Below, one piece after another: positions 36,776 through 41,684 of a DNA stretch of 46,790 nt (positions within the stretch are counted from its first letter, which is position 1; each line of letters opens with the position of its first letter). The stretch is from Myxococcota bacterium (lineage in GTDB: Bacteria > Myxococcota > Myxococcia > Myxococcales > Myxococcaceae). Made by a program: the position numbers and the translations under genes. The notes under the pieces are model-generated. The model saw nothing but the letters and a program-made list of their open reading frames with translations. It ran no database searches and was not told the origin of the DNA. The DNA is taken from the NCBI GenBank assembly GCA_049322255.1, contig JBMORE010000190.1, positions 1-46,790 of the forward strand. Direction: 5' to 3'.

Positions 36776-37815
36776 CACCGGCCACGCGCCGACAACTCGA
36801 TGATTGCCTGCAACGAGAAGGGGTTGGGGGGGGCAAGCTGATCATAGGTGCACGCGCGCGGAGCCTTGTCCTCGCGCCAGCGCAAGAAGGTCGCCCCGTG
36901 GCGGAACCGGTCTCCTTGCATGTAGTCGAAGGCCACCTCGCAGACGAGCGTGGGCTCCACCGCCGTCCAAGCCAGCTCCTTGCCCGAGGACCAGCGGCTG
37001 GGGGCGCCGGGGGTGCGCCCCTCTCCGAAGCTCTTCTTTCCCTCCAGGGGGCGCAGCTTGGCCAGGAGCTCTTTCTTCTCCTTCGCTTTGAAGGACGAGG
37101 TGTGGCCCACGTGGTGGAGCACGCCGCCCTCGTCGTACAGCCCGAGCAAGAGCGAACCCACCGCGCCGCCTCCTTTAGCCTCTCGGTAGCCGCCCACCAC
37201 GCAGTCGGCGGTGCGCGCGTGCTTCACCTTCACCATCGTGCGCTCACCGGGCGTGTACGGTCCGTCGGCGCGTTTGGCGATGACCCCGTCCAGGCCCGCC
37301 CCCTCGAAACGGGCAAACCAGCGCGCGGCCTCCTCGTGGTTCAGGGTCTGCGGAGTGAGAAAGAGCGCGGCATCGGACTGTACGAGCGACTCGAGCTTCC
37401 TTCTCCGCTCGCGAAAGGGCGCTCCGCGCAGGTCCTCCTCGCCCAACGCGAGCAGGTCGAACGCCACGAAGCTCGCCGGCATCTCCTTGGCCAGCTTATT
37501 CACCCTGGAGGCCGCGGGGTGGAGCCGCAGCTGCAGAGTGTCGAACTCCAGCCCGCGTTTTCCGGCGAGAATGATTTCGCCGTCGACGATGCAGCGTTCG
37601 GGTAGGCGGGCGCGAAACGTCTCCACCAGCTCGGGGAAGTAGCGCTGCAGCGGCTGACCTTTGCGGCTGTTTAGATAGACATCCCCTCCGTCCTTGAACA
37701 CCACCGCGCGAAACCCATCCCACTTCGGCTCGTAGACCCAGCCTTCTCCGGACGGGATGTCGTCCTGCGGCAAGGCGAGCATCGGCTCGATGGGAGGAGT
37801 CAGCGGCAAAGCCAT
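36775..37815 (-). CDS. ligC: ATP-dependent DNA ligase, LigC type
   Basis: 'PMLA', motif I 'YEPKWDGFR', 'DGEI', 'FDLL', 'DGVIAKR', 'KVK', OB-fold 'GSLLLGLY..LHHVG', 'RFRHG...RWREDK'. No polymerase or nuclease domain. Confidence 0.88.
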   Translation of the reverse strand: MALPLTPPIEPMLALPQDDIPSGEGWVYEPKWDGFRAVVFKDGGDVYLNSRKGQPLQRYFPELVETFRARLPERCIVDGEIILAGKRGLEFDTLQLRLHPAASRVNKLAKEMPASFVAFDLLALGEEDLRGAPFRERRRKLESLVQSDAALFLTPQTLNHEEAARWFARFEGAGLDGVIAKRADGPYTPGERTMVKVKHARTADCVVGGYREAKGGGAVGSLLLGLYDEGGVLHHVGHTSSFKAKEKKELLAKLRPLEGKKSFGEGRTPGAPSRWSSGKELAWTAVEPTLVCEVAFDYMQGDRFRHGATFLRWREDKAPRACTYDQLAPPNPFSLQAIIELSARGR

Positions 37816-37977
37816 GGAGACTGGACTACTACCCTCTCGGGGGACTTTCGTGGAAGCAATGATGATGCAGGACGCGCACTCAACCGGAACTGGTGCGCTG
37901 TCCAGAAGTGCGCCCCGACGAAGCCGACCAGATTCATCGGCTCCCTCGGAGCGCGAGTGCGGCATTGGTTCCTGCGA

Positions 37978-38637
37978 CTACGCCACCTCAGGTATCAGCA
38001 GAAGTGGCTCCGCCTTGTCGCTCGACGCAGGAGCGAGGGCCGGCTTCTTCTTCCTTCTCACCACCTTCCGCTCGGGGACAGCAAGCCCCGAGACGGCAAG
38101 CAAGGCCTTCCCCTGCGCTACTGCCGCGTTGGCGCGGTAGAACACGTGGGAGTACTCGCGGCTGGCACGCTCGAAGTCCTCCTTCACCTGGGAAGATGCT
38201 TCTTCCACCGCCAGCCACGAAGAGCGCTTGGCGATGATTGTGCTGGCCAGGCCCGGCCCGGCGACGGGCACCCGCTCGACGTACTCAGCGACGTGTGCAG
38301 CGATGGCCGGCTCATCGTTGCCATCGGAGACGAGCACCGAGCGTGCCCCCTTGATACCAGAGATTTCGCATAGCTCGACTCCCAGCCGGACGAGGATGAC
38401 GAGCTCCTTACGCGTGGCCGCGAGGGTGGTGCGCGAGGCCGTCAGCGCTTCGGCCTTCACATCCAGATTCTCCTTCGACGCCCGAAGCTCCCTCTCCGAC
38501 TGCTGAATCTCGTCGTAGAGCGCTGCGCCTCCGGGCAGCTGGCGCAGACCCGCGCTGACCTCGCCTGAGCGCTTCATGTGGGTATTGAACTTCATATGAA
38601 TGCCGCTGATGCTTCGGCTGATGCGATTGGACGACAT
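37978..38637 (-). CDS. Orphan helical/coiled-coil protein with basic C-terminal patch
   Basis: AAGGAG RBS before ATG 38637, 219 aa open frame, heptad-like segments, 'RKVVRRKKKP'. No family recognised. Confidence 0.65.
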   Translation of the reverse strand: MSSNRISRSISGIHMKFNTHMKRSGEVSAGLRQLPGGAALYDEIQQSERELRASKENLDVKAEALTASRTTLAATRKELVILVRLGVELCEISGIKGARSVLVSDGNDEPAIAAHVAEYVERVPVAGPGLASTIIAKRSSWLAVEEASSQVKEDFERASREYSHVFYRANAAVAQGKALLAVSGLAVPERKVVRRKKKPALAPASSDKAEPLLLIPEVA

Positions 38638-38825
38638 GATGTGGACTCCTTGCTGTGGTCGGTGAATTCCGACCACGCCAGGCAGAGCAGCGACCATGCC
38701 CAACATGAAATCGAGTTATTTCAATTGGTTGAAGAGCGGCCGAACCCGAAAGCCGTCTCGCGGAGATAGAAGGAGTCCCGTCTCTGAGACGGGTAGGCCT
38801 GCGGAGTGACTCCGGGCGAGCCCGA

Positions 38826-38972
38826 AAGCCGGGCAAGTGACTCGCCCTGGTTGGGGAAGCCGGGCAAGTGACTCGCCCTGGTTGGGGAAGCCGGGCAAGT
38901 GACTCGCCCTGGTTGGGGAAGGCGGGCGAGAGACTCGCCCTGGTTGGGGAAGGCAGGCAAGTGACTCGCCCT
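38826..38972. repeat. Tandem array of ~4.7 x 31-bp units, each with an internal palindrome
   Basis: Unit AAGCCGGGCAAGTGACTCGCCCTGGTTGGGG at 38826, 38857 and 38888 (identical), 38919 (3 substitutions) and 38950 (partial). No spacers. Confidence 0.95.
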
Positions 38973-39067
38973 CGGAAGTCGCTGCTCTCTTGTCGCGGTT
39001 TTCGCGCGACGAGCTGACGCGCGTCCTTGGAAAGCGTGGGTGAGGGAGTAGTATCGGGTCGCTCCTT

Positions 39068-39436
39068 ATGAGTGACGATGCTCCTCCGCGTGGCTCGAAC
39101 CGGCGCCGGCACCCTCGCACGCCGCTCGGAATCTTGGTGCAGTTCCGCTTCGACACGTTCGAGGACTTTCTCGCCGAGTACTCCGTGAACATTTCCCCGG
39201 GGGGGATGTTCATTCGCACCACCGAGCCGCGCGAGGAGGGCTCGATGATCTATCTCCAGTTCACTTTGAAGGACGGCTCCAAGCTCATCGAAGGCCTGGG
39301 CCGGGTGGTGCGGGTCAACCCGCCCGGCGACAGGAGCCGCGAGCCCGGCATGGGCATCGAGTTCGTCAACTTCGACGAGGAGTCGATGGCGCTCATCCAG
39401 GAGATCTGCAACACCAAGACGGTATCGAAGAGCTAG
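39068..39436 (+). CDS. Stand-alone PilZ-like TIGR02266-family protein
   Basis: RRHPR (RxxxR), NISPGGMFI (NxSxxG), GRVVRV, GMGIEF. Confidence 0.88.
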   Translation: MSDDAPPRGSNRRRHPRTPLGILVQFRFDTFEDFLAEYSVNISPGGMFIRTTEPREEGSMIYLQFTLKDGSKLIEGLGRVVRVNPPGDRSREPGMGIEFVNFDEESMALIQEICNTKTVSKS

Positions 39437-39438
39437 GC

Positions 39439-40869
39439 TTGGTGCTGCTCAAGTCCTTACGCTCGCGCCTGCTCGCCGCCTTCCTCTTACCCGCCCTGGC
39501 GCTCTTTGGCGTCGCCGGCTGGGCGGGCTACACGCTCTCCCGCGGCATCCTCGAGGATGAGCTGGGGCATAGCCTCTCGGCCATCGCCGCCGCCGCCGCC
39601 TCGCAGCTGAGCGGGGAGCGCTTGCTCTCCATCGAGCCGGGGGACGATGCGGGCGAGGGCACCCGCACCCACCGAAACCTCCTGCGCCAGCTCACGGAGG
39701 TAAAAGCAGCCGCGGGGGCTCGGCGGGTGTTCGCTTTCGACGCCCTGGGCAAGGTGCGCATCGACGCGGGCGGAGCGCTGCCGGTAGGGGCCGAGGTGCC
39801 TGAGCTGGCGCGCGATCGGCTGGAGCTTTCACGCGTCTTCGCCGGCGAGCGGGCGGCCTCCCAAGTTCTCTTCGAGGGCAGCGACGGCCGGCTCTACAAG
39901 ACGGGCTACGCGCCGGTTCTGCACGAGGGGAAGGTGAAAGGCGCCATCGGCGTGGAGGGAAGCGCCGAGTTCTTCGGCCCCCTCACCCGCCTCTTCCGCG
40001 CCTATGCGGTGCTGGTGGGAAGCGCGCTCGTTTTGCTCGCGGCGGTGGCGGTGCTGAGCGCGCGAGCACTCTCCCGGCCGCTCCACCGGCTGATGGAGAG
40101 CGCGTTGCGCATCGGCGGCGGCGACTTGGAGACTCCGGTGCGCGCGGAGCCCACCCACGAGATTGGCGTGCTCGCCGGAGAGCTGGAAGAGATGCGCAAG
40201 GGCCTTCTAAGCCGCGACCGCCAGCTGAAGATGATGCTCGCCGGCGTGGCCCACGAGGTGCGTAACCCCATCGGAGGCATCGGGCTGTTCGCCGGCTTGC
40301 TCGCCGAAGAGCTCGCCGGGCACGCCGACGTCGGCGAAGCCAAAGACCACGTGCGCCGGATTCAAAAAGAAATCGACTACCTCAAGCGCATCGTGGAGGA
40401 CTTCCTCGCCTTTGCCCGCGAGCAGAAGCTCTCGCGCTCGCCCATCGACGCGCGCTCGCTCATCGAGGCCTCCCGGGAGCTGATGGCTCCCGACGCCGCG
40501 CGCAAAGAGGTCGAGCTTGCGCTTTCCGCCGAGGCGGGCACGGTGGAGGCAGACCCAAATCTCTTGCTCGCCGCCATCGTGAACCTGGTGAAGAACGCGG
40601 TGCAGGCCGCTCCGCCCAACTCACAGGTGGAGCTGCGGGGAGCGGCGGTGAACGGGCGCTACCGCATCGAAGTCGTAGACCAGGGCGCTGGCATTCCTCC
40701 CGAGATGGCGGAGCGAATCTTCGAGCCCTTTTTCACCACCCGGGAAAAGGGAACGGGGCTGGGTCTGCCGCTGGCGCAGAAGATTGCCCGCGCCCACCAG
40801 GGCGAGCTGGAGGTGCGCTCCCAGCCGGGGAGCACGGTGTTTCGCCTCGAGCTGCCCTTGAAGGTATAA
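39439..40869 (+). CDS. Membrane sensor histidine kinase with HAMP domain
   Basis: Two TM segments, HAMP, H-box 'AGVAHEVRNP', N-box 'NLVKNA', 'DQGAGI', 'FEPFFTT', 'GTGLGL'. Confidence 0.93.
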   Translation: MVLLKSLRSRLLAAFLLPALALFGVAGWAGYTLSRGILEDELGHSLSAIAAAAASQLSGERLLSIEPGDDAGEGTRTHRNLLRQLTEVKAAAGARRVFAFDALGKVRIDAGGALPVGAEVPELARDRLELSRVFAGERAASQVLFEGSDGRLYKTGYAPVLHEGKVKGAIGVEGSAEFFGPLTRLFRAYAVLVGSALVLLAAVAVLSARALSRPLHRLMESALRIGGGDLETPVRAEPTHEIGVLAGELEEMRKGLLSRDRQLKMMLAGVAHEVRNPIGGIGLFAGLLAEELAGHADVGEAKDHVRRIQKEIDYLKRIVEDFLAFAREQKLSRSPIDARSLIEASRELMAPDAARKEVELALSAEAGTVEADPNLLLAAIVNLVKNAVQAAPPNSQVELRGAAVNGRYRIEVVDQGAGIPPEMAERIFEPFFTTREKGTGLGLPLAQKIARAHQGELEVRSQPGSTVFRLELPLKV

Positions 40870-40877
40870 GAGCGGCG

Positions 40878-41684
40878 ATGCCCGTGCGCGCCCCCTCCTT
40901 CGGTCACGAGTCGTTTCAGAACCTCTTGCGCGAGGTCTACGGCGCGCGCCTGACGCTCAAGGACGGCGGGAAGAAGGGCGTGGTGGATCCGAGCGACATC
41001 CTCATCCTCCGCCAAAAGAGCGGAAAGCTGGTGAAGACCAAGCTGGGAAAGACGCGCTACGAGCAGGCGAAGATGCAGCTGCACGTCGTTTCGGCGGCGC
41101 GCGCCTTCGCCGACGCCGGAGTGGCCTTTTCCCACTCGAGCAAGACCGACCGGGTGAACCAGAAGCTCTGGTGGATGGGCTACGGAGGGAAGATGGGTCT
41201 GCGTCAGGGCAAGCGGCCCTCCGATGCGGTCAACGACGTCTTCACCAACGGCCACAAGTACGCCATGGAGTGCGCCACCGCGACGCTGCTCATCCTCTAC
41301 AAGGGCATTCTCGACCGCATCGGCCCCAAGGACTTCGACGAGGCGTTCGCCAAGACGCGCCTGTTCCGCTGGGAGATTGAGGACGACGACTTCACCAAGG
41401 CCAAACGCACCGGAAAGCTCCCCGGGTTCTGGCCAGGCGACCACACCTACTTCAAAAACCCCGACTTCGACCCCGCGCACAGCGCTTTCCAGGGCGAGAA
41501 CGTCATCTACCTGGGCAAGAACGAGTACTTCGGCCACGGCACCGGCATCTTGACGAAGAAAGAGCTCGTCGAGCTCCTCAACTCCATGCGCCGCCCGGGC
41601 TCCTCCCGCAGCGCCTTCCGCGACGGGTTCGAGCTGCGGCTCGACCCCAAGCACATCGGCAAGCTGGACAAGCGCGACGACTAG
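40878..41684 (+). CDS. tgl: Protein-glutamine gamma-glutamyltransferase of the Bacillus Tgl family (not the Myxococcus pilotin Tgl)
   Basis: 'PSDAVNDVF.NG.KYAMECATA..L.YK', 'PGDHTYFKNPDFDP....QGENVIYLG...YFGHG.GI' follow the Bacillus Tgl motif series. Confidence 0.85.
   Translation: MPVRAPSFGHESFQNLLREVYGARLTLKDGGKKGVVDPSDILILRQKSGKLVKTKLGKTRYEQAKMQLHVVSAARAFADAGVAFSHSSKTDRVNQKLWWMGYGGKMGLRQGKRPSDAVNDVFTNGHKYAMECATATLLILYKGILDRIGPKDFDEAFAKTRLFRWEIEDDDFTKAKRTGKLPGFWPGDHTYFKNPDFDPAHSAFQGENVIYLGKNEYFGHGTGILTKKELVELLNSMRRPGSSRSAFRDGFELRLDPKHIGKLDKRDD

Follow-up and report, generated by a model that had tools for sequence, protein, structure and literature searches.

The tandem array upstream of a 219-aa orphan gene in the 46,790-nucleotide myxobacterial stretch analysed here (the window) is, on balance, best explained as a phased array of double-stranded DNA operator sites, set three helical turns apart, that would extend a predicted sigma-54 control region of the gene. 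The first-pass annotation had favoured RNA hairpins on the strand of the gene and mentioned a multi-operator as a minor alternative, and it is this alternative that our analysis supports. In the mechanism we propose, a sigma-54 activator would bind a GTCY-N8-RGAC dyad near -107 and loop to the polymerase at -24/-12, transcription from near 38675 would yield an mRNA of a single gene that has a hairpin at its 5′ end and stops at a terminator, and a second, dimeric protein would load the 17-bp dyads of the array along one DNA face, activation being tuned by their copy number. Two readers are suggested because the two elements evolve differently. The likeliest dyad binder would be the orphan gene's own product, given that the dyads change in sequence and period with the protein clade, which the activator site does not, and it takes about half of the weight of this explanation, the rest going to a host regulator; the split is even because common descent would also give the clade pattern and because the protein has no known DNA-binding fold. 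The elements concerned are the following.

38826..38972, no strand assigned: tandem array of five 17-bp dyads of the GGGCGAGT-C-ACTYGCCC type with a 31-bp period; likely a DNA operator array
38800..38816, no strand assigned: degenerate sixth dyad (centre 38808, about -133) in the same 31-nt register, the CGGAGTCACTCCG element of the first-pass annotation
38775..38790, no strand assigned: GTCT-N8-GGAC dyad, centre -107.5, overlapping the formerly proposed CCCGTCTCAGAGACGGG hairpin; candidate upstream activating sequence for a sigma-54 activator
38755..38770, no strand assigned: weak second activator-type dyad, 20 bp downstream of the first, in which the AGAC half alone fits
38718..38731, minus strand: candidate AT-rich IHF-like site between dyad and promoter, with one mismatch to the IHF consensus
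38686..38701, minus strand: predicted sigma-54 promoter, GG-N10-GC (GG at 38700-38699, GC at 38688-38687), with a predicted start near 38675
38654..38678, minus strand: 5′-terminal leader hairpin, GUGGUCGG-AAUUCA-CCGACCAC, conserved with compensatory changes
38646..38651, minus strand: ribosome-binding site AAGGAG, read from the sequence
37978..38637, minus strand: orphan gene (219 aa), product predicted as a long helical bundle with a Lys/Arg-rich tail, of an unnamed Myxococcaceae family
37915..37950, minus strand: terminator-like hairpin after the stop codon (-22.5 kcal/mol) with a weak U tract, which the consensus scan did not pick up

Predicted promoter, candidate activator dyads and leader

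The predicted promoter between array and gene is conserved. A sigma-54-type site scoring at least 9/12 was found in 18/21 family loci, against 2.4% of 3000 random windows, the window's own site scoring only 9/12; in all but one of the 18 scoring loci (17/18) its distance to the start codon is 49-61 nt, and its GG and GC are invariant in all 16 aligned loci. Three features of an enhancer-dependent promoter are found together here, with a GG and GC conserved at 10-nt spacing, a conserved dyad some 70-150 bp upstream, and a genome that encodes rpoN and about 30 strong activator domains. From this promoter the transcript is predicted to begin near 38675, downstream of the array; only the last hairpin would then be transcribed, the array and the other proposed hairpins lying upstream of the start.

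The CCCGTCTCAGAGACGGG dyad, centred at 38785, was found as first noted, and so was the hairpin that precedes the ribosome-binding site, which has kept its standing as an RNA structure. In an alignment from which the structure itself was derived, 88.5% of cells were paired and 19 were compensatory, a level reached by 0/500 shuffles and compared with 25-54% in slid controls. This leader hairpin, which sits at the predicted 5′ end and has no U tract, is a real candidate for an RNA element. On the gene strand, the scan returned no terminator-like site between array and gene.

In regards to the activator site, GTCY-N8-RGAC, a motif spotted by eye in the same loci in which it was later counted, is present in strict form in 21/27 loci and in loose form in 25/27 (26 family loci and one unrelated orphan gene, with 8/27 promoters picked by eye), over a background of 0.4-0.7%. 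The spacer of 8 is specific, since no other spacer from 1 to 15 exceeded 2/27. The motif often occurs in pairs 17-22 bp apart in the homologues, and its centres cluster at -76, -96, -107 and -127, that is in steps of one to two helical turns; it was not in range at the C7 locus, nor at a broken family copy (L124), and the dyad pair at C102 may be the terminator hairpin of the upstream gene. It also precedes unrelated orphan genes in the window's genome, and a held-out locus on contig C149, which came up solely through its paralogy to another orphan protein, has two exact copies at a distance of 20 bp. Over the whole genome the motif shows hardly any enrichment near sigma-54-like sites (10/228, vs 6-9 of 286-542 for other spacers); an exact copy lies near only 1/30 activator ORFs, and no activator could be assigned. 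A 17-bp, roughly 32-bp-spaced geometry is generally ascribed to NtrC sites, of which the literature covered gave no confirmation. Activator sites about 100 bp upstream of sigma-54 promoters have been described (PMC4641369), and sigma-54 enhancers tolerate shifts by a helical repeat, tandem sites in phase being additive (PMC4740811).

Two other places in the genome may be mentioned here. At C103:62922 a sigma-54-like site (10/12) has a one-mismatch activator dyad at -86 and stands before a gene that reads like, and is presumably, recA. The window itself has, at 40878-41684, a gene for a protein-glutamine gamma-glutamyltransferase of the Bacillus type (Pfam TGL, E 4e-59), flanked by the genes for a histidine kinase and for its NtrC-type regulator.

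The array as probable DNA sites and its periodicity among homologues

The array at 38826-38972 (period 31, 4.7 copies, 94% matches, score 259) is the sole strong one among the 7 rows that Tandem Repeats Finder gave for the whole window. Its five dyads are centred at 38963, 38932, 38901, 38870 and 38839, about -288 to -164 relative to the predicted start, and with the degenerate sixth they bear out the array as first described, including its fully Watson-Crick unit (38924-38940). The unit had been drawn as a 7-bp stem with a 3-nt loop; a 17-bp dyad with two 8-bp arms and one central base fits better. At the array the Logan contigs from the probable source run are interrupted, with a collapsed piece of 57 nt at a depth of 75, vs 39-41 in the flanks; given this collapse at about double depth the array is present in the reads, which come from the same probable source run and not from an independent sample.

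The first-pass reading, a repeat RNA with a cognate protein, would need a more distant promoter to transcribe the array, and processing of the transcript into 31-nt hairpin RNAs to which the protein binds, as a type III antitoxin-like element or a sponge. The order of array, hairpin and gene agrees with it, as do the folding of a lone unit (-9.4 kcal/mol on the gene strand vs -5.5 on the other), the folding z of the whole region (-8.2 vs -3.2) and a sister array elsewhere in the genome, on contig C53, whose wobble is also on the strand bearing a weak promoter-like site. However, the gap in z arises because the shuffled means differ, the free energies being equal, and the two strands of the array fold alike (-73.2 vs -73.6 kcal/mol), with pairing mostly between units. 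The G-U pair that had been taken to favour the gene strand is one event copied by duplication, since any transition in a palindrome yields G-U on one strand, and the argument vanishes over the homologous arrays: distinct transition mismatches read on the gene strand number 12 G-U vs 11 A-C in 44 dyads (a set that excludes L016, near-identical to L024, one L024 unit with an insertion, and loci without clear dyads), so that no strand is favoured. The two innermost bases of a dyad, which could not pair within a hairpin, are complementary in 30/44 of these dyads, drawn from 8 hand-chosen series. The conserved promoter between array and gene, a pre-gene hairpin at the predicted 5′ end and without a U tract, an all-helical protein and homologues that have no array all speak against a repeat RNA; Rfam gave 5 weak matches over 37400-39500, none at the array, and no sigma-70-like site was found upstream of it. 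We consider this reading very improbable and the array likely to consist of double-stranded DNA sites, not of antitoxin RNA; the order of array, hairpin and gene together with a G-U mismatch is insufficient for calling a repeat RNA.

The link between array and orphan gene holds up among the homologues, as a matter of period and not of sequence. Tandem Repeats Finder reported 31, 32 or 63-bp arrays upstream of 6/23 other family matches, and the top lag of the upstream autocorrelation was 31/32 in 13/19 loci, a count that overstates independence since the loci are related and five of the 32-bp loci come from one genus. The same top lag occurred in 0.3% of 2000 random (mostly coding) windows and at 5/267 other sigma-54-like sites. 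The array sequence is clade-specific. On the protein tree, 6/7 loci of one well-supported clade share a 32-bp period and a GGA-N2-AA-type dyad, and the loci with periods of 73 and 74 group together; the window and its closest homologue locus (L012), whose pairing the tree does not resolve, have a GGCG-type dyad in common and the same register to 1 bp. In the distant clades the period is 61, 73 or 74, and upstream of an unrelated orphan gene on contig C94 it is 83; all clear periods (31, 32, 61, 73/74, 83) come close to a whole number of helical turns. The loci have between 0 and about 9 copies, and in L015, L017 and L026 the diverged units keep their dyad symmetry while the linkers drift. In the window the array and activator site stand at a distance from the promoter that exceeds that in L012 by about 30 bp, which points to an insertion of three turns. 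The window also carries a 19-nt duplication (38737-38755 and 38813-38831, 76 bp apart). Protein length as a ruler for the period was not supported: proteins of 205-231 aa go with 31, 32 and 61, and those of 254-255 aa with 73-74.

An array upstream of each homologue, as the first-pass reading would have it, was thus found in part, with the 31/32 peak in 13/19 loci and several loci lacking an array, the genome's own paralogue included. This paralogue (contig C54, 39% identity) has the promoter and activator sites but no array, and 6/19 loci lack the 31/32 peak, from which the array appears to be dispensable.

The orphan family and related arrays in the genome

A search with the orphan protein returned 28 representatives at E <= 0.001, itself included, and the family profile is present in 16/208 genomes of the same family and in 0/229 sampled genomes from other families of the phylum; the named relatives encoding such proteins are Myxococcaceae/Archangiaceae metagenome bins. 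The model, predicted with confidence (pLDDT 91.5), is made up of five helices, two of them about 55 residues long, and contains no strand; a Lys/Arg-rich basic tail is found in 35/38 family proteins. Known families gave little. Pfam had nothing over its cut-off for the orphan family; DUF6261 (PF19775), to which the Atlas had pointed weakly (0.76 over 32% of a cluster), was matched by 0/26 members at E 0.1, and KfrA_N by 1/26 members only, at E 0.039. PADLOC and NCBIfam gave single-member coiled-coil matches only, PHROGs no match, PDB sequences a best E of 0.047, and the fold searches nothing more specific than helical bundles of a generic kind (Foldseek E 0.049 and VIA Z 11.9 at best). No known DNA-binding domain was recognisable in the family and fold searches. 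Endoribonucleases of the ToxN/CptN/TenpN type were absent from the Pfam, PADLOC, NCBIfam and PDB sequence matches and the model is strand-free, in agreement with the earlier remark that the protein is unlike ToxN. A homodimer prediction scored 0.24, below the 0.42 mark. A single-protein query of viral contigs gave no relative.

None of the 26 homologue loci share the window's neighbours and 3/26 are near tRNA genes; judging from these loci, the orphan gene behaves as a solitary one-gene unit. At one locus (L029/L021, G078:C40:13793-15201) two family genes stand in tandem, and a promoter was found for the first, which is the one examined. A broken family copy (L062, G231:C141) has a 32-bp x 8 array abutting a 3′ gene remnant, and the second damaged copy, L124 (G223:C223), lies 3 kb from L024. 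In the literature covered (titles and abstract openings, with subscription journals and supplements outside), no description of the family, the motif or a three-turn array on such a promoter was found.

The window's genome (G000) is a 4.85-Mb assembly with 66% G+C. The array there is not a genome-wide, REP-like repeat: it occurs at two loci only, and the exact 17-mer was found in 3/207 relatives as single chance-like copies without arrays. The dispersed repeat that was to refute the first-pass reading is nevertheless seen in part, since there is one gene-less sister array and several homologues have none. Gene and array thus each occur alone. The sister array (C53:73100-73237, or L001 7101-7238) has the same period and core with a changed linker, and lies between a convergent gene and one that, from its sequence, we take to be crcB; no family gene adjoins it. 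Its flanks carry weak promoter-like sites, a GG-N10-GA seen by eye and, before the presumed crcB, a GG-N10-GC at background level.

Other orphan genes of this genome have a similar surrounding. An 83-bp (2 x 41.5) array split over two contig ends (G000:C94:1-1121, L126, and C112:1-257) is followed on C94 by a 220-aa orphan gene, and between the two stand, in this order, an activator-type dyad, a sigma-54-like site and a 5′ hairpin. Three paralogues (G000:C122:10936-11742, L125; C149:16046, L130; C53:24830, L131) make up a second orphan family, with proteins of about 170 aa, each with a GG-N10-GA promoter variant and GTCY-N8-RGAC sites, with one mismatch at C53. The C94 and C122 proteins show no homology to the 219-aa family and had no match in 207 relatives. 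An intergenic 42-bp x 10 array between convergent genes (G000:C84:5178-5606, L128) has no orphan gene adjoining.

Alternative explanations and known systems

Phased operators have to be weighed against their main rival, a neutral minisatellite, in which the sigma-54 promoter would be real, an enhancer region with similar sites three turns apart would be prone to slippage, and the extra copies would bind nothing relevant or would be spare activator sites. The variation in copy number down to 0, the arrays with no gene or a broken one (C53, C84, L062), and four loci (L010, L041, L013 and L014) in which the activator-type dyad itself, doubled, makes up the 31-bp repeat are all in its favour. We nevertheless regard it as unlikely, given that the clear periods all stay near whole turns, that old diverged units retain their dyad symmetry while linkers drift, and that the window's own units are off the activator consensus. 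Still less probable is that each unit is a weak sigma-54 docking site and that the array would serve as a store or a decoy for sigma-54 polymerase close to the true promoter. Four of the five units do score 8/12 whichever strand is read, and on the gene strand a -12 TTGC is created by the T that interrupts the palindrome, but 11% of random windows have this score, any 17-bp dyad with GGC at positions 2-4 necessarily contains GG-N10-GC, and the units of the 32-bp clade (GGA...TCC) do not fit.

We give equally little credence to the array belonging to the divergent PilZ-kinase operon, or being the end repeat of a small mobile cassette. The array ends 95 bp before the PilZ start, and the varied contexts of the homologous genes, a few near tRNA genes and none beside the window's neighbours, would suit a mobile unit. 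However, 0/13 PilZ orthologue loci have a 31/32-bp array or the orphan gene, the periodicity travels with the latter, no transposase or integrase is next to the gene in the window, and the single-protein viral query found no relative.

The preferred reading, a phased operator array on a sigma-54 control region, recasts an apparent RNA array as a DNA control region that can be tested, with a candidate activator motif, a predicted start, a copy-variable phased array and an unnamed protein family. Were the protein to bind its own array, a plain helical bundle would read DNA by spacing, and a function would be offered for bacterial tandem repeats of fixed length and free sequence; if it does not, the orphan genes still make up a small candidate regulon of sigma-54 in uncultured myxobacteria. 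A wider and more doubtful generalisation, which we put forward as speculation, is that these are one-gene myxobacterial cassettes with unrelated helical-rod proteins, served by one sigma-54 activator via GTCY-N8-RGAC, in which each clade's protein would coat its own dyad array, gene-less copies elsewhere in the chromosome included, with a period of 3, 6, 7 or 8 DNA turns.

Plasmid centromere and operator arrays (parC-ParR, KfrA operators) are helically phased repeats upstream of the gene for a small helical protein, which may coat them. The window resembles them in its helically phased dyads upstream of a small helical-protein gene, but differs in that no partner ATPase or replicon was seen, no ribbon-helix-helix or helix-turn-helix domain was recognised, and the predicted promoter is of the sigma-54 type. 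Type III toxin-antitoxin loci (ToxIN, CptIN, TenpIN) share with it a tandem array, a stem-loop and a single small gene; as outlined in PMC3401426, they have their promoter ahead of the array, a stem-loop that acts as terminator and an endoribonuclease as toxin. In the window the promoter comes after the array and the protein is a predicted helical bundle, so the three features that define type III are not those found here.

The promoter type is already known, as are fixed-length, variable-sequence repeats in Bacillus (PMC8161180, PMC6749651). The latter, the constant-length bacterial tandem repeats of Subirana and Messeguer, are likewise non-coding, with a fixed period and free sequence; they measure 20-21 and 52 nt in Bacillus, with no gene link in the abstract of PMC8161180, whereas the repeats here are of 31/32 and anchored to the promoter of one family, and 'Myxo' has 0 occurrences in the main text of PMC6749651. 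Also close to the window are sigma-54/enhancer systems such as glnAp2/NtrC and the M. xanthus Nla28 targets, which in the parts of the papers cited have GG-N10-GC, dyads 70-130 bp upstream that are often paired, site positions that shift by whole helical turns, and an AT-rich spacer (PMC4641369, PMC7408454, PMC9765219, PMC4740811); upstream activator sites and tolerance of whole-turn shifts are known features of such promoters (PMC4641369, PMC7408454, PMC4740811). GTCY-N8-RGAC differs from the Nla28 half-site and matches no motif in those same parts of the cited sigma-54 literature. To this known arrangement the window's family adds, 200-350 bp upstream, a second array of dyads, which is specific to the clade and can reach about 9 units.
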